From a bacterium BMS3Abin06 (GTDB lineage Bacteria > Nitrospirota > Thermodesulfovibrionia > UBA6902): 64,000 nucleotides of DNA. Within the stretch, counting starts at the first letter, position 1, and every line of letters begins with the position of its first letter. Where the stretch lies: contig BDSY01000037.1 of NCBI GenBank assembly GCA_002897895.1, positions 7,306 through 71,305 of the forward strand, in the 5' to 3' direction. Below the pieces are notes generated by a model, which saw nothing but the letters and a program-made list of their open reading frames with translations, did no database searches and was not told the DNA's origin. Of this stretch, positions 2,903 to 58,290 are shown piece by piece. The translations under genes and the position numbers were made by a program.

Positions 2903-3981
2903 TGAGAAACTGCCATTAGCGAATTATAAAGCTTCTCTATTTCTTTTGTATTCTTTTTTATATCAAAAAAGTGCTCTGCCCGACTTCTCACTTTTTCCCT
3001 CATATCACGAAGAATCTGTCTGTTTTTTATTATCTTTTCTATTATAGATGCCAATTCCAGATCATCGCCTGCAGGAAAAAGAAATTCCTTTAAATCCTCT
3101 CCCAGAGCTTCTTTATTGGCTGATAGATCAGAAGCAATAACAGTTTTACCCATAGCCATGGATTCAATTATTATTCTCGACAATCCTTCCCCTTTAAACG
3201 ATGGCAACACAACAACATCAACAGCAGCAATATCATCCAGAATATCTCTTTTATAATCCTTGAATACCACATTGGTATTAACGGACAGACTCTTAAGCTC
3301 TTCTAAATACTGCCGGTCTCCATCTCCCATGATTATTAATTCCACTTTTTCACTAAGTCTACTGACTGCCCTGACAAGAACCTCTATGCCTTTTCTTTTT
3401 TCTACCCTTCCAAAATAACCAATTCGTAAAAATTCGTTATCTTCGTATTTAGTTAAAGGTCTAAACATATCCAGTTCCACCCCATTATAAACAACACGGA
3501 TTTTATCCTTCTTATCTATCAATTTGAACCTGTTCGCTGCGGATTGAGAAACTGCTATCATAGAATCAGCGATGTTAAATAGAATCCTGTCCAACCACAA
3601 AAATGAATCCGATACCCTTAGATGAAGGATAACAGGCAGACGGCAGAGTTTTCCGGCTAAGGCAGCATAAAAAGTTTCCCTGGGCGATTCTGTATGAATT
3701 AAATCGATTCTTTCTTTTTTTATTATTCTCCATAAATTAATTAGCCTGCTTACTGTAAGAAACAAGTTAAAAGACCTTATTCTGGGAAAGGGAAGAACAA
3801 ATATCTTTACTCCTGATTTTGTGATCTCTTCAGACAATTCATCTCTCCCTGGAACTATCAAAAATGGCGTAAATCTCTCTTTATCAAGATGTTTTATCAG
3901 TAAATACAGACTCCTCTGTCCACCGCCGCGAAGAGAACTAAAACAGCTTGTAAACAGAATATTATATTTTGCTTTCTTCAA
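2899..3981 (-). CDS. glycosyltransferase family 1 (GT4-like)
   Basis: C-terminal GT1 motif EGLSRIIIESMAMGKTVIASD. Overlaps neighbours by 4 bp, operon-style. Confidence 0.75.
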   Translation of the reverse strand: MKKAKYNILFTSCFSSLRGGGQRSLYLLIKHLDKERFTPFLIVPGRDELSEEITKSGVKIFVLPFPRIRSFNLFLTVSRLINLWRIIKKERIDLIHTESPRETFYAALAGKLCRLPVILHLRVSDSFLWLDRILFNIADSMIAVSQSAANRFKLIDKKDKIRVVYNGVELDMFRPLTKYEDNEFLRIGYFGRVEKRKGIEVLVRAVSRLSEKVELIIMGDGDRQYLEELKSLSVNTNVVFKDYKRDILDDIAAVDVVVLPSFKGEGLSRIIIESMAMGKTVIASDLSANKEALGEDLKEFLFPAGDDLELASIIEKIIKNRQILRDMREKVRSRAEHFFDIKKNTKEIEKLYNSLMAVSQ

Positions 3982-5095: not shown

Positions 5096-5968
5096 TTACA
5101 AAGGTTTTCGTAGCTTAAATGTGTGCGCCTCAGAGAATTTTTTCATTAAGGAACAGTAATCAGAAATCCTATCTGCGATAAGAGTGAGCGCAAATAAAAT
5201 TGGGTGAATATTACAACGATATCCTCCAAACAACATACTTCCTCGTTTAATATCCTCAATGATAAATCCTTTATCTCGAAAAATGTCTATCCACTCATCC
5301 ATGCTTTTCACAGAAATATGCCCATGCCCAATGTCGAAAAACCGATCTTTTTGCCCACTGCTATAATAGTCAACTTGTTTATTCTCACTATAACTTCGGA
5401 TGGGAATAAGTCTCTTTAGAATTTTCGCAAACTTATTATCTCTATTAGTAGTTGTAACTATCGCTAAACCGCCGGGGTTAAGTAGTCTTATCATCTCGGT
5501 TAAACATTTCTCAGGGTTAACAAGGTGTTCAATAACATCAGTACAGAGAACAATATCAAAGCAACTGTCAGACAAAGCGAGGTTCTCAACATTACCAACT
5601 TCAAAATTTACGTTGCAGGCTTCTATACTTTTTGCAATCTCTGTGGCAGAATAGACATTTAATGAAGAGATATCGATACCTCGAAAATAGATTTTTTCCT
5701 TTGCCTCCTCTTTAAGGGAATTCAGTAAAAATATGTGATATCCATCACCACAACCAAGGTCAAGCACCTCGATTGTTCTATCTCTTTTTCTTTTTAGTTC
5801 ATCTTGAAAGCAGCTTAAAATATTCTCTATCATTTTCCATGTCTCGTAACTTTTTGTATAATTTCCTGCATGCCGACCATAAATAGCATTTTTGGCATTT
5901 ATAATATTTCTTTCAAATATCTTTTTATAAAAAGATATTTCAGACATATCACTATTCATCTTTCTCAT
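5096..5968 (-). CDS. class I SAM-dependent methyltransferase
   Basis: VLDLGCGDGYHIF motif I, plus downstream acidic and hydrophobic motifs. Confidence 0.7.
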   Translation of the reverse strand: MRKMNSDMSEISFYKKIFERNIINAKNAIYGRHAGNYTKSYETWKMIENILSCFQDELKRKRDRTIEVLDLGCGDGYHIFLLNSLKEEAKEKIYFRGIDISSLNVYSATEIAKSIEACNVNFEVGNVENLALSDSCFDIVLCTDVIEHLVNPEKCLTEMIRLLNPGGLAIVTTTNRDNKFAKILKRLIPIRSYSENKQVDYYSSGQKDRFFDIGHGHISVKSMDEWIDIFRDKGFIIEDIKRGSMLFGGYRCNIHPILFALTLIADRISDYCSLMKKFSEAHTFKLRKPL

Positions 5969-19658: not shown

Positions 19659-20747
19659 TCAACTTTTCCTTGTCAAACGAGTCTCGGGAAAGAGACCCTT
19701 GCGGTTTATCTCCTCGCAGAACCAGAATGGCGCCCAGAGAGACTTGCTCAGGTAATAATTCTGGGCAACACAACTTCCGAGACAGCGGCTCTTCATAAGA
19801 CATTCCCCGCAAATACCCTCAAGTCGGCCGGGAAGTCCCTCCCGGAGTTCCTTAAGAACAGGGCTGTCGTCCCAGATATCCTTTAGGCGATCTGCTGCCG
19901 CATGACCAAAGACAAGCTCGGGCACTGTCTCTCCAATGCCACACATGGCATAAGAGCCGTCAGCCAGAACCCCGAGAATGCCGCGGATCCCGCAGATACC
20001 ACACCCACCTCCATTATTGCCGAACATCCTGGAAAGGGGGCGGAAGGCGAGCGGATGGGAGTAGTGAAGACGCAGTTTTGTCAAAGGAGAAAGAACCTTT
20101 TCCACCCATTCTCCTAATTCCACAAGCTCTTCAATATCGAGGGTCTGCCCTGCATCATGCATCTTTTCGCCTCGCGCAGTGGGCTGAAGGATATTGAATT
20201 TGACAGAACCGCAGCCAAGCGATTCAGCAAGGTGTACCACTGACTTCATCTGATCTTTATTACGCGACATGATAGTCATAATGACCTGAGGTCTGAAGCC
20301 GGCATTTACCAGATTTCGAATGCCCTCCCCGGCTGCCTCAAAACAACCCGAAACCCCGCGCATCCACTCATGGGTTTCAGCATCCGCTGCATCCAGACTC
20401 ACCGATACAAAGGGATTCTTACACGCAGCCATCTTGAGCGCCAGACCTTCCGTGCAAAGAAGACCATTGGTCTCTACGATGAGCCGGAGGTCATTGGCCC
20501 GAATCTCATCAAGGATTTCATGAATCTGAGGATGCAGAAGCGGTTCACCTCCGGTTAACTTGACCCCGGAAAGCCCCAGGGGCTTTGCCTGCCTGATTAT
20601 GGAGCGGAAAAGCTCCGGAGAAAGAGAAGGGTAAGAACTGCTCCCGCCCTGGTATCCCGGGTCAATCCAGCAATGACGGCAGCGAAGGTTACACCCCTCA
20701 GTCAGATAAAAGTAAATCTGATTCAGAGAAAATTTACGGTCATTCAT
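19659..20747 (-). CDS. radical SAM/SPASM domain peptide maturase (ScmF-like)
   Basis: CNLRCRHC (CxxxCxxC) radical SAM cluster. C-terminal SPASM cysteines (CGICGI..., CGECLMKSRCLGSC). Confidence 0.8.
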   Translation of the reverse strand: MNDRKFSLNQIYFYLTEGCNLRCRHCWIDPGYQGGSSSYPSLSPELFRSIIRQAKPLGLSGVKLTGGEPLLHPQIHEILDEIRANDLRLIVETNGLLCTEGLALKMAACKNPFVSVSLDAADAETHEWMRGVSGCFEAAGEGIRNLVNAGFRPQVIMTIMSRNKDQMKSVVHLAESLGCGSVKFNILQPTARGEKMHDAGQTLDIEELVELGEWVEKVLSPLTKLRLHYSHPLAFRPLSRMFGNNGGGCGICGIRGILGVLADGSYAMCGIGETVPELVFGHAAADRLKDIWDDSPVLKELREGLPGRLEGICGECLMKSRCLGSCVAQNYYLSKSLWAPFWFCEEINRKGLFPETRLTRKS

Positions 20748-20810
20748 TTTTTATTCTTTTATACATGACGACTTATAAAATTTCGCATAATATGAAATTC
20801 TCCCAAAGTC

Positions 20811-20872
20811 TGTCATGCCGGCTTGTCCGGCATCCTTCCTGGAAGAAAGATTCCCGACAAGCGGGAATGACA
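20811..20872. repeat. hairpin MITE (family A), solo copy
   Basis: tgtcatgccggcttgtccggcatc...gattcccgacaagcgggaatgaca, the same inverted-repeat arms as the GIY-YIG element at 41774..42180. Confidence 0.7.
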
Positions 20873-20934
20873 CAACATGCGCAATAATTTATGACGCTCT
20901 GTATAGTTATCCTGATTTATCCTGTTAATCCCGT

Positions 20935-25237: not shown

Positions 25238-25380
25238 ATGTTTATTCCTCCATTATTTATTTTTGTCATGCCCGAAGTCTTTAATCGGGTATCCAGAACT
25301 CATTGAAAAAACTGGATTCCCGCCCAACAGATCGCGGGAATGACGGCTCTATTGTTGAGTTTATACACAGACTCCAATTA

Positions 25381-35258: not shown

Positions 35259-35327
35259 TGTCATTCCCGCTTGTCGGGAATCCGGGAAAATCAAAGGGTT
35301 ATAGATTCCGGGCAAGCCGGAATGACA
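35259..35327. repeat. hairpin MITE (family A)
   Basis: tgtcattcccgcttgtcgggaatc...gattccgggcaagccggaatgaca. Confidence 0.7.
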
Positions 35328-35992: not shown

Positions 35993-36618
35993 TTGAAATG
36001 TATGACATGGCTCTGGAGAGCCATACCCGGTACAGAGTCTTTTTCTCTCACAACAATCTATCCCGGCCTGATTACAGGCTCCGGTTACAATCATCCTGCA
36101 GGTGAAAGAGAGTCGGACAGTTCATCTGACTTTCAGATGGGATTCTACTTTGACCATACCACCGGTATGCCTGTTATCCCCGGTTCAACAGTAAAAGGTA
36201 TTTTAAAGAGCGTATTTCCTAAAAATGAAGACAAGGAGATAATTCAGGAAAAGATAAAATATATAAACGGCTTACTTGACAATAAGTTTGAAATTACAAT
36301 TGACAATTGGCAGAACCTCTTTGAAAAAGGCAACATCTTCTACGATGCATTTATATCTTCCGTGCCACAGGACGGCAGGATTTTCGCCGAGGACTATATA
36401 ACACCCCACAAAAATATATTAAAAATCCCATACCTATCCGTTTTCTGAAGATTGCCCCCGGCGTTGCCTTTACATTCCAGTTCAGACTGAAAGATTCCGT
36501 GCTCTATAACGAGCTGAAAATATCGGTCAGTGAGAAAAAAGAGCTTTTCAAACGGATATTGCTTGATTTCGGTATCGGAGCAAAAAGGAATGTGGGGTAT
36601 GGTAATTTTATAGAGTGA
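35993..36618 (+). pseudogene. type III CRISPR RAMP protein (Cmr6/Cas7-like), frameshifted
   Basis: N-terminus has FSLTTIYPGLITGSGY and IPGSTVKGILKS, the RAMP G-loop that matches the IPGSS(L/I)KG hallmark. After a -1 shift in the A5 run at 36421..36425 the frame continues as NPIPIRFLKIAPGVAFTFQFRL...DFGIGAKRNVGYGNFIE, a C-terminal Gly-rich loop. Confidence 0.6.
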
Positions 36619-36828: not shown

Positions 36829-36897
36829 TGTCATTCCGGCTTGTCCGGAATCTTTCTTCATAAAGGATTCCCGACGCGCTTCGCTTGCGGGAATGAC
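36829..36897. repeat. hairpin MITE (family A)
   Basis: tgtcattccggcttgtccggaatc...gattcccgacgcgcttcgcttgcgggaatgac. Confidence 0.7.
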
Positions 36898-36971
36898 TAT
36901 TTAAACAACCCGTCAATTTACGGTTGACGTGACACTATGATGTTTTAGAAACTGTTGCTGATCCTGCATGA

Positions 36972-38515: not shown

Positions 38516-39493
38516 ATGCACACTCAATCAAACGAGCTCAGATACCTGACATTCGCCAGATTCATATTCAGGGCAAGGGCGGAAACCGTACTCAGACTGC
38601 CTCCCTACAAGGGCTCCACATTCAGGGGCGGTTTCGGCTTCAACCTCAGGAAGACCATCTGCATTAACAGGGCGGATGACTGCAACAGGTGTGTTCTGGC
38701 ATCAAGATGCATTTACACCTATATTTTTGAGACAAAGCCCCCGGAGGACCCGGGGATTAAACACAGTTTCTCGGAAGTGCCCCACCCCTATGTGCTGAAT
38801 CCCCCGCATACAACAAAAGAGACCTTTGAGCCCGGTGAGACTTTTACATTCGAGCTGGTCCTTTTCGGAAAGGCCATTGATTACTTTCCCTACTTCCTGT
38901 TTGTATTTCAGCAAATGGGTGAGAACGGGATAGGCAGGGAAAAAGGCAGGTTTGAGATTGAGACGGTAATGAACGAAAGATTTGACGGTGAAGCCGGGAT
39001 ATACAGCTCCGCGGATAAATGTTTAAAAGGCAATATCCAGGTATACTCCTCCGAGAACTTTTTCCGGGTTTATACGGATATTATAAAGATGAATCCCGGG
39101 CAGATAACAGTGCGCCTGCTTACACCGTTCAGGTTCAAAAAAGACGGGCATTTCAGGGATGACTTTGACTTTTTCGACCTGTTCAGGAACCTGCTGAACA
39201 GGCTGTACCTGCTGACATACTTTCACTGCGGCAACAGGTTCGACCGCGACCACAGGGACCTGCTTGAAAAGAGCAAGGCTGTTGAGATAAAGGACAAGGA
39301 TATCAGGTGGCATGACTGGACCAGGTACAGCAACCGGCAAAAAGCGAAGATGAAAATAGGCGGAGTGAGCGGGGAGTTCCGTATACAGGGTGATCTTGCG
39401 CCGTTCCTCCCGTTTCTGAAGATCGGGGAATACACCAACATAGGCAAGGCAACAAGCATGGGACTGGGAAAATACGAGATTGTGTGCCTGTAA
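38516..39493 (+). CDS. cas6: CRISPR-associated endoribonuclease Cas6 (orphan)
   Basis: N-terminus RLPPYKGSTFRGGFGFNL. C-terminal Gly-rich loop GKATSMGLGKYEI. About 325 aa. No adjacent CRISPR array. Confidence 0.65.
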   Translation: MHTQSNELRYLTFARFIFRARAETVLRLPPYKGSTFRGGFGFNLRKTICINRADDCNRCVLASRCIYTYIFETKPPEDPGIKHSFSEVPHPYVLNPPHTTKETFEPGETFTFELVLFGKAIDYFPYFLFVFQQMGENGIGREKGRFEIETVMNERFDGEAGIYSSADKCLKGNIQVYSSENFFRVYTDIIKMNPGQITVRLLTPFRFKKDGHFRDDFDFFDLFRNLLNRLYLLTYFHCGNRFDRDHRDLLEKSKAVEIKDKDIRWHDWTRYSNRQKAKMKIGGVSGEFRIQGDLAPFLPFLKIGEYTNIGKATSMGLGKYEIVCL

Positions 39494-41678: not shown

Positions 41679-41773
41679 AAAAAAATATTTTCTTAACCCG
41701 TCCCCTTCAAACTTTGGTTCTTTCGTGTTTTAGTTGAAGATAGGCTTAAAATTCAACTTAACACAACGCACAA

Positions 41774-42180
41774 TGTCATTGTGGCTTGTCCGGCTTGTCA
41801 TTCCGGCTTGTCCGGCTTGTCATTCCGGCTTGTCCGGAATCTTTCTTACAAGGTGCTTCCATGCAGAATAAACGCTTTGCAGTGTATATTATGGCTAATG
41901 CCAGGCCAACTCTTTATGTAGGGATAACAAACAACCTCATAAGAAGAGTCTATGAACATAAAAACAATCTTAACCCACGCAGTTTTACAGCAAAATATTA
42001 TCTTCACAGACTTGTATATTACGAGTTGTGTGAGAATAGCTTCAGTGCTATCATCAGGGAAAAACAGATAAAAAATATGAGTAGACAGGGGAAGATAGAA
42101 CTTATTAGACAAAGCAACCCGACATTTAGGGATTTATACGAAGATATTGTAGAAAAGATTCCGGACAAGCCGGAATGACA
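41774..42180 (+). mobile_element. small GIY-YIG nuclease element bounded by perfect inverted repeats; source of MITE family A
   Basis: Left end tgtcattgtggcttgtccggc(ttgtcattccggcttgtccggc)x2..aatc. Right end gattccggacaagccggaatgaca. The right repeat supplies the stop codon of the internal gene. Confidence 0.7.
41861..42178 (+). CDS. GIY-YIG domain nuclease (UPF0213-like)
   Basis: [29 protein letters not shown] contains the GIY...YIG motifs. 105 aa. Confidence 0.7.
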
Positions 42181-42240
42181 GAAATATGGAACTGCGGCAG
42201 AGATTGCGGTGCGTTTGAAAATTGTATGTTTATTCTTGGT

Positions 42241-42315
42241 TGTCATTCCCGCTTGTCGGGAATCCCTCGACTTGTCTGGATCACAAGAAAAGATTCCGGA
42301 CAAGCCGGAATGACA
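42241..42315. repeat. hairpin MITE (family A), tandem to the GIY-YIG element
   Basis: tgtcattcccgcttgtcgggaatc...gattccggacaagccggaatgaca. Confidence 0.7.
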
Positions 42316-42376
42316 GACTGATCATGTGTTTTCAACTTTTTTACGAATGAACCCAAACTTTTAACAAACATATTTT

Positions 42377-47086: not shown

Positions 47087-47305
47087 ATGAAAACGATTGG
47101 AGCTGCAAAATTTAAAGAACAATGTCTGTCAATTCTTGAAAAGGTTGATAAGGAGGGTATTATTATAACCAAGCACGGCAAACCCATGGCAAAGCTCATT
47201 CCGGTTGAAATCCGGTCCTCGGACCTCATAGGGAAGATGAAGGGAAAGATTAAAATCAAAGGGGATATTATGTCAACAGGATTAAAATGGAATGCTCAAT
47301 CTTGA
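47087..47305 (+). CDS. Phd/YefM-family type II antitoxin
   Basis: MKTIGAAKFKEQCLSILEKVDKEGIIITKHGKPMAKLIP. Confidence 0.65.
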   Translation: MKTIGAAKFKEQCLSILEKVDKEGIIITKHGKPMAKLIPVEIRSSDLIGKMKGKIKIKGDIMSTGLKWNAQS

Positions 47306-47651
47306 TACTCATATCCTCATATTTGCCTTGTGTGATAACCTGACCAAAAAAGAAAAGACCATTCTTGCAAAAGAACCGTGGAGTATATCATCGATTGTAA
47401 TCTGGGAGATAACCAAGCTATCACAGCTTAACAGGATTGAATTAGACATAGATGCTCCGGAGCTCTCACTGATACTGTCTAATATTCATATCTGGCCATT
47501 GAGCCTGGATATTTGCCGGGTTATTAAAAGACTTGATTTTACCGGTGATCCTGCGGATGAAATAATTGCAGCTACAAGCCTTGTTCATAATGTCCCCCTG
47601 GTCACAAGAGACCGTCAAATACTAAAGTCAAAGATAGTTCCCCTTATTTGA
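47292..47651 (+). CDS. vapC: PIN-domain toxin (VapC-like)
   Basis: MLNLDTHILIF..., about 119 aa with PIN acidic residues. Overlaps the antitoxin by 14 bp. Confidence 0.65.
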   Translation: MLNLDTHILIFALCDNLTKKEKTILAKEPWSISSIVIWEITKLSQLNRIELDIDAPELSLILSNIHIWPLSLDICRVIKRLDFTGDPADEIIAATSLVHNVPLVTRDRQILKSKIVPLI

Positions 47652-48857: not shown

Positions 48858-49148
48858 TTGGAGGTTAAAATGTCTACGGCAACCAAAATTCAAAGGAATT
48901 ACCAAATAACTATTCCTGCCAGGATACGAAAAAAAGCTCATCTCCGAGTTGGTGATCTGGTAGATTTTGAAGTCACAGAAGAAGGAATACTTATAAAACC
49001 GCAGGAAACAATTGATCGCACTCAGGCATGGTTCTGGTCGAAAGAGTGGCAGGAAGAAGAAAAAAAAGTTCAAGAAGATTTTCGCAAGGGGAAAATCAAG
49101 ACAAACAGGAATATTGATGAATTCATAAAGGAACTTGATAAGAAGTGA
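48858..49148 (+). CDS. AbrB/MazE/SpoVT-family antitoxin
   Basis: ITIPARIRKKAHLRVGDLVDFEVTEEGILIKPQ swapped-hairpin motif. Confidence 0.6.
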   Translation: MEVKMSTATKIQRNYQITIPARIRKKAHLRVGDLVDFEVTEEGILIKPQETIDRTQAWFWSKEWQEEEKKVQEDFRKGKIKTNRNIDEFIKELDKK

Positions 49149-49405
49149 GGGTTGAACGATCTCCGAGGTTCGATAGAGCGTATAAAAAACTGCCCTTAGA
49201 AGTAAGGGAGCGTTTCAAGGAAAAACTCAGGCTTCTTGCAGAGTCGAAATTTACTCATCCATCTCTAAGAGTCAAAAGGATAAAAGGCACAACTGCTATA
49301 TGGGAAGCAAGTATTGATATGAACCACAGGTTTACATTTGAGAAGATTACCGGTGGTATCCGGTTACGCGTAATCGGCCCGCATAAGGTAATTAATACGC
49401 CTTAA
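49145..49405 (+). CDS. RelE/ParE-family toxin-like protein
   Basis: 86 aa, with a pattern resembling RelE/ParE proteins. 4 bp overlap with the antitoxin. Confidence 0.45.
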   Translation: MRVERSPRFDRAYKKLPLEVRERFKEKLRLLAESKFTHPSLRVKRIKGTTAIWEASIDMNHRFTFEKITGGIRLRVIGPHKVINTP

Positions 49406-50459: not shown

Positions 50460-51611
50460 ATGGAGGTGGCGATGGCAAGAAAAACAAAACGCGCAAAATT
50501 GAATTTAACCGAAAACGAACACAACAAACTTGAACTATTAAGCAACTCACGTACAGCCCCATTAAGGGAAATACAAAGAGCTCGGATATTGCTGCACTAT
50601 GCCGATGAGTTGCCGATCATCGAAATACAGAAAATGGTTAATATAAGCCGGCCAAGCATCTACAAATGCATTGATAAGGCATTGGCTGCCGGTACTGAAG
50701 CTGGTTTGAAAGATTATTATCACAGACCATTTGATCCAGTCATTACAGATGAAGCAAGAGCTTGGGTTATCAACCTTGCATGTACGAAGCCAAAAGATCA
50801 TGGAATGGCTGCCGAGCTTTGGACCCACAATGAACTTGCCAAATATACACGTAAACATGCCCCGGAGCAAGGGCATGAATGCTTGTCCAGAGCAGCGAAA
50901 GCAACTATCTGGAGAATATTATCTGCTAACGCCGTGCGACCTCACAAGATTAAATATTATCTTGAGAGAAGAGATCCTGATTTTAAACAAAAGATGCAGG
51001 AAGTCCTCATGGTCTACCAGGAAGTCAACATTCAAAACGAACAAAATATAGCTAACGGTGAGCATCCAATGTTTATCACCGTTTCAGTCGATGAAAAACC
51101 TGGCGTACAGGCCATTAAAAATATTGCTCCCGACTTACCACCCAAGCCAGGGGTACACAAAACAGTGAGCAGGGACTATGAATACAAGCGACTTGGCACT
51201 GTTTCGATACTTGCCGCCCTGGACTTGCACAATGGTAATATCTTAGCACAGGTACACGACCGGCACCGCAGCAGAGAATTTATTTCGCTACTGAAAGAAC
51301 TTGATGAATATTATCCACCTGAGAGCACAATTCGCATTGTGCTTGACAATCATTCGTCTCATATTTCAAAAGAAACAATGAAGTATCTTGAGTCGCGACC
51401 AAGTAGATTTATCTATGTGCATACGCCTAAACATGGGTCATGGTTGAATTTGGTTGAATCTGTATTTTCTAAGATGGCTCGAACATTTTTAAGGCATATA
51501 AGAGTCAACTCAAAAGACGAACTTAAAGATCGTATTCTTCAGGGCATCAATGAAATCAACTCTTCCCCTGTAGTTCATAGGTGGGAAAAGTTCGATCTTG
51601 CTGTTGTTTAA
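50460..51611 (+). mobile_element. IS630-family transposase (DDE_3)
   Basis: N-terminal HTH, and a DDE_3 core (VSVDEKPGVQA...IVLDNHSSH...LNLVESVFSKM). Confidence 0.8.
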
Positions 51612-58057: not shown

Positions 58058-58290
58058 TCTTTATACCTCTCTTTACTAATGGTTTAAAGGAATTTATTCC
58101 TTGTTTTTATTTTACTATAAAAAAGCTTTATAGCGCAATATATTGTATTTAAATTAATTGGAAGCGCTATATGAAGTATGCTGATGATAGGCCGTGGATC
58201 TGAAATAAAGAATTATATCCCCCTGATAAAAGGCCTGAAGAACCGGATTTATCCGACTGTTCCGGGGGCTTTTGTTAGCAAAAAGCGACA

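Follow-up and report, generated by a model that had tools for sequence, protein, structure and literature searches.

A GIY-YIG nuclease gene and its hairpin repeats as the probable cargo of an ISL3-like miniature transposon in a Nitrospirota bacterium

The window analyzed here, a stretch of 64,000 nucleotides (nt) of contig BDSY01000037.1 (positions 7,306 to 71,305) from the Nitrospirota bacterium BMS3Abin06, contains a short gene for a GIY-YIG nuclease placed between inverted hairpin repeats. Most probably, with about two chances in three by our estimate, the gene and its hairpins represent a hairpin-nuclease module of the Ssn type carried by an ISL3-like non-autonomous transposon and mobilized in trans. 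The kind of module is already known from the description of the Ssn family (Chenal et al., Nat Commun 2025; PMC11893778); the window holds its transposon-wrapped variant, and the wrapper is not mentioned in that paper. The observations comprise terminal inverted repeats with an 8-bp duplication, bracketing of the gene by oriented hairpins, covariation within the hairpin stems, selective constraint on the gene, its multi-copy status, and a presence/absence polymorphism.

Since its ends carry an ISL3-type signature and are accompanied by an 8-bp duplication, the transposable unit in the window is the 638-bp segment 41716-42353. The predicted element is non-autonomous, the ssn-like gene and the hairpins being its only cargo. 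Its features are listed below in window coordinates; loci used for comparison are numbered with the prefix L, and the complete hairpin units correspond to the repeats called SRM in the Ssn family.

41708-41715: left copy of the target-site duplication, 8 bp, CAAACTTT; the same 8-mer abuts both terminal inverted repeats
41716-41738 (+): left terminal inverted repeat, GGTTCTTTCGTGTTTTAGTTGAA, ISL3-like; pairs with 42331-42353 at 17 of 23 positions
41739-41773 (+): leader from the inverted repeat to the hairpin array, homologous to the leaders in the unrelated gene contexts of L041, L089, and L170
41774-41817 (+): two truncated tandem hairpin copies with a 22-nt period; the 3' half of the stem is missing and the first copy is mutated
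41818-41844 (+): left complete hairpin unit (SRM) with TGTC tag, ATTCCGG, loop CTTGT, CCGGAAT, and tail CTTT
41861-42178 (+): ssn-like gene for a predicted single-domain GIY-YIG nuclease of 105 amino acids (aa)
42154-42180 (-): complete hairpin unit (SRM) on the right, inverted, forming a perfect 27-nt inverted repeat with the unit 41818-41844
42181-42285: internal insert or duplication, missing in L085; holds the left unit of an extra doublet
42241-42315: gene-less hairpin doublet inside the transposon (units 42241-42263 on the + strand and 42293-42315 on the - strand)
42316-42330 (+): trailer common to paralogues; GACTGATCATGTGTTT... is kept in L085 and L041
42331-42353 (-): right terminal inverted repeat, GGTTCATTCGTAAAAAAGTTGAA on the - strand
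42354-42361: right copy of the target-site duplication, 8 bp, CAAACTTT; perfect match to the left copy

The two ends begin with GGTTCTTTCGTG... and GGTTCATTCGTA..., in agreement with the GG(C/T)TCTT start of ISL3-derived elements, and are the only two matches to the terminal inverted repeat in the window; a further site resembling the inverted repeat, 58229-58244, appears to be a match by chance. Ends of the form GGCTCTTCG... and duplications of 8 bp characterize the ISL3 family, its miniature derivatives included (PMC6305408 Table 3; PMC11448079). The ends taken for comparison were GGCTCTTCGCGG of ISArsp7 (PMC6305408) and GGCTCTTCG of a Microcystis element (PMC11448079). A scan of viral contigs revealed no match to the terminal inverted repeat, and the plasmid collection gave no match.

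According to the original prediction, the mobile element was a unit of about 400 bp with the hairpins themselves as its termini. Neither part of this claim held. The repeated unit is 638 bp long and reaches past the hairpins at either side, no target duplication abuts the hairpin edges, and the homology between paralogues reaches the 23-bp inverted repeats and the 8-bp duplication. On the left, homology of the window with L041/L089 and L170 continues for about 100 nt through the hairpin array and the 35-nt leader, and the left terminal inverted repeat also ends these three paralogues at other loci. To the right of the hairpins, a trailer of about 30 nt is common to the window, L085, and L041. 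The search for a target-site duplication that had been suggested as a check was thus successful, the 8-bp repeat being located at the outer inverted repeats and not at the hairpins. In the L041 copy, the ends are the same and the perfect 8-bp duplication is a different one, AAAGATTT. A blind scan for an 8-bp duplication beside an inverted repeat returned loci L012 (425 bp, TAAAGATA), L009 (456 bp, ATACTTTA), and L019 (498 bp, AAATTTCT); controls with a shifted position of the duplication gave 0-1 loci. In L042 and L046, the 8-bp duplications have one mismatch. The ends found in relatives were GGCTCTTACGTG and GGTTCTTCAGGC, and six copies in the metagenome-assembled genome (MAG) JAMCWJ01 share GGCGCATCCGG....

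The hairpin unit is 23-27 nt long and consists of the TGTC tag, stem ATTCCGG, loop CTTGT, and stem CCGGAAT, followed by C. As single-stranded DNA (ssDNA), one unit forms a 7-bp stem with a 5-nt loop (-6.4 kcal/mol, z about -5 to -6). The arms of the inverted repeat around the open reading frame (ORF), 41818-41851 and 42147-42180, are 34 nt long and 94% complementary, with a perfect core of 27 nt. The presence of a 105-aa GIY-YIG gene (Pfam PF01541) between inverted hairpin repeats was therefore correctly recognized from the start, as was the stop codon supplied by the right repeat: the right arm contains the last codons (KIPDKPE) and the TGA, and the right hairpin unit supplies the last eight codons of ssn with this stop. 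Because the ORF overlaps the right repeat, it is not located entirely between the repeats, as had been stated. The triplication of the left repeat was seen by Tandem Repeats Finder as 2.9 tandem copies at 41774-41837 (period 22, 95% matches), of which the third alone is a complete hairpin and the first two are truncated.

Further along the element, a 32-nt direct repeat occupies 42151-42182 and 42286-42317, with starts 135 nt apart; the insert 42181-42285 together with the second copy makes up the 135-bp period. The doublet 42241-42315, taken earlier for a solo MITE (miniature transposable element with inverted repeats), thus results from a 135-bp duplication bounded by identical 32-nt copies of the right unit. 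The gene-less doublet is real and lies inside the 638-bp element. In L085, the right hairpin unit is followed by a 17-nt partial duplication and then by the trailer. As ssDNA, the doublet 42241-42315 folds into one long hairpin (-22.8 kcal/mol), and three of the four gene-less doublets of the window fold as single long hairpins with -16 to -23 kcal/mol. The remaining doublets and a singleton are dispersed through the window.

20811-20872: hairpin doublet with stems ATGCCGG and ATTCCCG, at the center of a TA-flanked miniature element
25316-25345 (-): single hairpin unit of canonical type (CGTCATTCCCGCG...GGCGGGAATCCAG) with a 9-bp stem and CCA tail
35259-35327: hairpin doublet in an intergenic spacer
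36829-36898: hairpin doublet, the second unit with a long 14-nt loop

With up to three mismatches, the 23-nt core matched the window 10 times against 0.00 expected. A generic tag-plus-hairpin scan found 11 units and three chance-like matches (2.9 on average in shuffled sequence). These 11 units form five inverted pairs, one of which brackets ssn, and one singleton. The loop is CTTGT or CTTGC in nine of them, and, excepting the singleton, the stem is 7 bp (10 of 11) with tails CTT, CCT, CCG, or CCC. The stems ATTCCGG, ATTCCCG, and ATGCCGG differ through compensatory changes. The leader AGAGTCTGTGTRTAAAGTCRAACA, which precedes the canonical-type unit 25316-25345 (flank to about 25375), recurs beside hairpin units in L170 (2935-3000) and L085 (2926-2960) and may be a separate repeat module; in L170, it accompanies the same unit as in the window. 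The doublets at 35259 and 36829 are close to a gene of the Cas6 family (about 38516-39493, just upstream of the AsmA-family gene discussed below), and an ORF with a weak RAMP match (about 35993-36448) is located further upstream than the Cas6-family gene. Downstream of the element, Pfam calls on the matching contig indicated two toxin-antitoxin pairs, PhdYeFM/PIN (about 47087-47651) and MazE with its partner (48870-49405).

The distant doublets at 20811, 35259, and 36829 do match the hairpin units, in line with the earlier statement that MITE copies resemble the ends of the element. They share nothing else with the element or with one another and so are not its deletion derivatives. This bears on the scheme first proposed, in which a hairpin-bounded transposon of about 400 bp mobilizes itself, the GIY-YIG protein acts as the transposase, and the doublets are miniatures derived by deletion. 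This scheme, already disfavored, is very improbable. The single ORF within a perfect 27-nt inverted repeat, the recurrence of hairpin bracketing across phyla, and the several gene copies in some genomes agree with it, and the Ssn authors themselves noted the insertion-sequence-like layout of NTS-ssnA-NTS (PMC11893778). On the other hand, the outer hairpin edges have neither a duplication nor a conserved target, paralogue homology runs past them, the three distant doublets are unrelated outside the units, and some doublets reside in other miniature elements that duplicate TA. GIY-YIG nucleases hydrolyze DNA, and to our knowledge no strand-transfer chemistry is known for them. Moreover, the characterized enzyme SsnA leaves the reverse strand of the hairpin uncut (PMC11893778), which precludes cleavage of a single strand at the two ends.

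The layout of the module had been considered an uncommon transposon architecture, and it turned out to be the standard arrangement of the published Ssn/SRM family, where the hairpins are recognition sites in ssDNA (PMC11893778). The characterized member from Neisseria, SsnA, is a single-domain GIY-YIG protein of 94 aa (CDD cd10448) that binds the oriented form of the dRS3 repeat (NTS, CGTCATTCCCGCGMAVGCGGGAATCYRG) as ssDNA only and cuts a few nt upstream of the hairpin (PMC11893778). Thousands of Ssn homologues are known, at least one SRM being nearby in 71% and SRMs on both sides in 42%, and cleavage of the cognate SRM was demonstrated for four enzymes (PMC11893778). As in that family, the units 41818-41844 (+) and 42154-42180 (-) are oriented repeats present on both sides within 500 bp.

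The protein itself also resembles the Ssn type. It contains one GIY-YIG domain (PF01541, E=3e-12, residues 7-76) and, with 105 aa, falls within the range of single-domain proteins below 150 aa used for Ssn. In an alignment of 41 homologues, Y9, R29, H33, and E67 were invariant and Y19 was at least 90% conserved; all of these residues are present in the window protein, and the spacing of Y9, Y19, and E67 resembles that of Y6, Y17, and E64 mutated in Neisseria SsnA. The AlphaFold2 model (pLDDT 86) consists of a GIY-YIG core and C-terminal helices, and the nearest solved folds are UPF0213 BH0048, Slx1, HIGLE, UvrC-N, and I-TevI. Comparison with the YhbQ/UPF0213 proteins, proposed earlier as a check, showed that the protein is not YhbQ-like at the sequence level (phmmer E=0.47 to BH0048, 1zg2); the fold alone is similar (TM 0.54-0.59). 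An I-TevI-type homing endonuclease, which would have an additional DNA-binding domain and reside in an intron or a conserved gene, was rejected, as the protein has a single domain, the gene is intergenic, and TIGR01453 gave 15.9 bits, below the cutoff of 56. Assignment to RAYT/REPIN systems (RAYT, repetitive extragenic palindromic [REP]-associated tyrosine transposase) was rejected as well: they require an HUH/Y1 transposase of the IS200/IS605 type, and GIY-YIG is the sole domain here. No NCBIfam profile matched the window protein above the cut-offs.

The window protein is 54-55% identical (E about 5e-30) to the homologues of L068 and L070, whose flanking repeat TGTCATTCCCGCGAAAGCGGGAATCCA agrees with the Neisseria NTS consensus except for the first base. 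A homologue search seeded with the L070 protein returned no Neisseria or Wolbachia protein. Wherever dS was unsaturated, dN/dS of ssn was 0.05-0.25; the gene is under strong purifying selection. In the L085 copy (3001-3318, protein P0002), which is 93% identical in protein, the second catalytic tyrosine is replaced by cysteine (Y19C, ...PTLCVGIT...), and this variant was found on five contigs from four assemblies. The counterpart mutation Y17A in Neisseria SsnA abolished cutting and kept binding (PMC11893778).

The homologue search yielded at least 8,000 candidates, the best 120 of which were 74-94% identical. Nearly all of these 120 end in IPDKPE followed by the stop codon, that is, inside the hairpin. 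At some 3' ends, the hairpin is read in other frames (EGFQTSWND, or GFPLSRE and stop in more distant homologues), and therefore the DNA is conserved and not the peptide. In a scan with one genome per species, at least 507 relatives were confirmed among candidate stretches, and 80 loci were examined, 72 of them with enough flank for analysis. A tag-plus-hairpin in the + orientation was present within 200 nt upstream at 51 of the 72 loci (14 in the wrong orientation), and one in the - orientation at or after the stop codon at 52 (15 in the wrong orientation). Units with the tag facing outward stood on both sides at 42 loci versus 6 in the wrong orientation. The flanking units comprised 16 different stems, every one self-complementary, and hairpin bracketing was seen in Nitrospirota, Patescibacteria, Chloroflexota, Bacillota, Planctomycetota, Ignavibacteriota, and Pseudomonadota.

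The exact window protein was found on seven contigs (source, Nitrospirae MAG GCA_011040195.1), always with an AsmA-family gene upstream and a PKD/NosD gene downstream. None of the 80 homologue loci had AsmA or PKD neighbors; consequently, synteny is not conserved. Copies with 91-93% identity occur between a histidine kinase and a sigma-54 response regulator (L085-L088), after He_PIG/PilY1 genes (L089, L041), and between comF-like and pilMNO genes (L170). With the window locus, copies 91-100% identical in protein thus occupy four gene contexts. Several related MAGs carry 2-6 ssn copies. The six copies in JAMCWJ01 show 93-99% nucleotide identity; one of them, L019, has a perfect target duplication and is 97-99.6% identical to L037, L046, L058, and L064. 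Being multi-copy and devoid of conserved synteny, the gene is not the single-copy, syntenic locus that would have spoken against mobility. Together with the absence of ssn at the L090 site (see below), these copies bear out the view that the locus belongs to a mobile multi-copy element. Considering the target duplications, the presence/absence polymorphism, the recent amplification, and the purifying selection, we conclude that the module does move in Nitrospirota.

An empty allele of the window's own site was not found: the nearest non-identical AsmA gene (L171) is 68% identical, and its locus has no ssn and cannot be aligned with the window at the DNA level. Downstream of this AsmA orthologue, L171 carries a lone tag-plus-hairpin unit of a further stem type (5674-5700, TGTCATTGCAAGCGAAGCGAAGCAATC).

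The same data bear on the possibility that Ssn is a domesticated, RAYT-like host nuclease, inherited vertically and maintaining or exploiting hairpin repeats, e.g., by restricting incoming ssDNA as in Neisseria, with the wrapper being an immobile fossil. Such a scenario was proposed by the Ssn authors, and the Neisseria enzyme modulates transformation (PMC11893778). Strong purifying selection and the occurrence of the exact protein in a single syntenic context, on seven contigs of the window species, would also be expected from a host gene. We nevertheless consider it unlikely, since the near-identical JAMCWJ01 copies with intact target duplications argue for recent transposition, copies with 91-93% identity sit in several contexts, and frameshifted and interrupted ssn copies exist. 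A domesticated function and residual mobility are, in addition, not mutually exclusive.

The presence/absence polymorphism was seen in the histidine kinase/response regulator operon. In the sister strain L090, the histidine kinase and the response regulator are 95% and 97% identical to those of L085, and the spacer contains, instead of ssn, a partly decayed hairpin doublet. More distant orthologous operons have neither ssn nor a doublet. Other copies have been altered by insertions and deletions. Two JAMCWJ01 copies (L037 282-395 and L042 5097-5210) are both interrupted by one miniature element, about 115 bp long and inserted at different TA sites in opposite orientations; it has CTAA...TTAG ends, a TA duplication, and a hairpin doublet at its center. 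A third copy from this MAG, L058, looks like the result of a deletion between two hairpin units. Another TA-flanked miniature element of about 140 bp, with TATACA...TGTATA ends and a central doublet, occupies about 20762-20903 in the window. The region 20740-20920 aligns with L041 5280-5450 at a mean column identity of 88% over the aligned stretch, flanks included, and an insertion akin to 20762-20903 truncates ssn at the 3' end in L041/L089. An IS630-type (DDE_3) transposase gene at about 50472-51611 was considered as the partner of the TA-flanked elements and rejected, as no matching terminal inverted repeats were found. In L170 (2264-3200), the accumulation of at least four extra hairpin units of different stem types has enlarged the transposon to about 930 bp; this mosaic cluster resembles the NTS clusters described in Neisseria.

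A rival explanation is homing-like spread. In this scheme, Ssn nicks doublets, which are its targets, and recombination copies the gene from an occupied to an empty doublet; the two hairpin units would serve as short arms of homology, and the ISL3-like wrapper would be coincidental. Many homing systems use GIY-YIG nucleases. Consistent with this idea, L085 has hairpin-ssn-hairpin where L090 has the decayed doublet, the L085 copy is without the outer left inverted repeat, L058 was apparently shortened between two units, and the duplication in the window is bounded by two identical right units. However, the homology arms would be just about 25 nt, and L085 and L090 differ by a replacement with additional unique sequence at either side, not by a clean fill-in. 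In at least five copies, an inverted repeat is combined with an 8-bp duplication, a structure that homing does not produce, and the characterized Ssn enzymes cut only ssDNA (PMC11893778). Homing-like spread, therefore, is an improbable explanation.

Several points weigh against an Ssn-type module mobilized by an ISL3-type transposase. Assignment to the Ssn family is putative: the likeness is indirect, and published members were defined by blastp to SsnA CAX49033.1 (E<1e-10, at least 75% cover) or by cd10448 as the top CDD match (PMC11893778). The published SRM search string, HGTCWYN(0-2)YYVSBRHN(0-5)WNVSBRGN(0-2)RNCYNB, misses the ATTCCGG-CTTGT-CCGGAAT units with a 7-bp stem, and its sole match in the window is 25312-25345. 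We treated this as a limit of the string, a heuristic derived from 29 genomes and not a definition. No sigma-70-like promoter above background was detected upstream of ssn. An ISL3 transposase with matching ends was not found within the window, and the terminal inverted repeat has no further copy there. The inverted repeats differ between lineages (GGTTCTTTCGTG, GGTTCTTCAGGC, GGCGCATCCGG), and therefore the association either is old or arose by capture more than once. Finally, the L085 copy is also devoid of part of the right inverted repeat, and its comparison with L090 fits recombination at the level of hairpins better than clean transposition.

With these points taken into account, the Ssn-type module in an ISL3-like carrier could function as follows. 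By analogy with the characterized family, the enzyme would bind its cognate hairpin only as ssDNA and in one orientation and then cut a few nt 5' of the TGTC tag, and the dispersed doublets would be other genomic target sites of the window nuclease. The module would move not by means of its hairpins but as the sole cargo of the 638-bp element, which, judging by the end signature, is most likely mobilized in trans by a DDE transposase of the ISL3 family whose gene lies elsewhere. The copies would subsequently be reshaped by recombination and slippage at their hairpins, as exemplified by the truncated tandem units, the duplication of 135 bp inside the element, and the gene-versus-doublet polymorphism. 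The autonomous ISL3 partner would be expected to have GGYTCTTWCGTG or GGYTCTTCWGRC ends, and an unoccupied site would be expected to read ...GTCCCCTTCAAACTTTTAACAAACAT....

As a broader and more tentative proposal, with odds slightly short of even, miniature transposons of the ISL3 type (425-640 bp, with duplications of 8 bp) may disseminate Ssn/SRM modules in Nitrospirota as their only cargo. If so, a concrete route of genome invasion would be known for these hairpin-nuclease systems for the first time. The nuclease might then also be of use to its carrier, e.g., through cleavage of ssDNA at hairpins close to a donor or target site, in a manner comparable to the assistance that TnpB gives to IS200/IS605 elements. 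In the most radical version, Ssn itself would substitute for the transposase. The Ssn family was described only in 2025, and its authors left mobility as a hypothesis (PMC11893778); the window and its relatives provide sequence-level evidence on the mobility of the hairpin-ssn-hairpin unit, pointing to movement in Nitrospirota within a wrapper of the conventional transposon type, bounded by inverted repeats and a duplicated target, and not via the hairpins. The data also reveal a very abundant hairpin variant missed by the published search string and again tie "orphan" CGTC/TGTC-tagged REPs to a GIY-YIG partner. The enzyme with its site (TGTCATTCCGGCTTGTCCGGAATC), derived from a thermophile, is a candidate tool for cutting ssDNA.

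Literature searches for GIY-YIG proteins together with REP, REPIN, or MITE returned nothing relevant, and the link to Ssn came through dRS3. This repeat, along with Rickettsia RPE-4/6, belongs to the CGTC-tagged REPs, said to "lack a dedicated transposase"; CGTC/TGTC-tagged REPs consist of a tag, an AT-starting stem, a 4-5-nt loop, and a short tail and occur mostly as inverted dimers (Di Nocera et al., BMC Genomics 2013; PMC3733652). The units in the window are similar in the unpaired TGTC, the AT stem, the 5-nt loop, the short tail, the intergenic position, and the arrangement in inverted dimers, often heterodimers. They differ in the stem (7 bp versus 8-9 bp) and in the tail (CTT/CCT/CCG versus CCA). 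While no dedicated enzyme was found for these REPs in PMC3733652, here, as in the Ssn paper, the GIY-YIG gene is the partner.

The REPIN/RAYT systems likewise combine a small nuclease gene with inverted genomic hairpin repeats on its sides and doublets folding as long ssDNA hairpins, and recognition in ssDNA would probably be another common property. In contrast to the HUH/Y1 fold of RAYTs, the enzyme has a GIY-YIG fold without covalent-intermediate chemistry, the tag is TGTC instead of GTAG, and the gene occurs in several copies and on a transposon, as opposed to the vertically inherited, single-copy RAYTs. With ISL3-type miniature elements (ISArsp7 and the Microcystis MITE), the element in the window shares GG(C/T)TCTT ends, imperfect inverted repeats of about 16-24 bp, the 8-bp duplication, and the absence of an internal transposase. 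Unlike them, it carries a passenger gene, ssn, with its predicted target repeats; no matching autonomous element was identified.

The closest known system is Ssn itself. Both have a single-domain GIY-YIG protein of about 100 aa and inverted oriented hairpins with a (C/T)GTC tag, an AT-starting stem, and C after the stem; in both, the flanking repeat is also dispersed through the genome and its stem covaries between lineages. SsnA has been characterized biochemically; the member in the window is predicted from its sequence. The host is a MAG of thermophilic Nitrospirota (Thermodesulfovibrionia-like), and the 7-bp stem with the CTTGT loop lies outside the published SRM string. The module in the window also differs from the published ones in the ISL3-like inverted repeats with an 8-bp duplication and the multi-copy state in relatives, neither of which is mentioned in PMC11893778.

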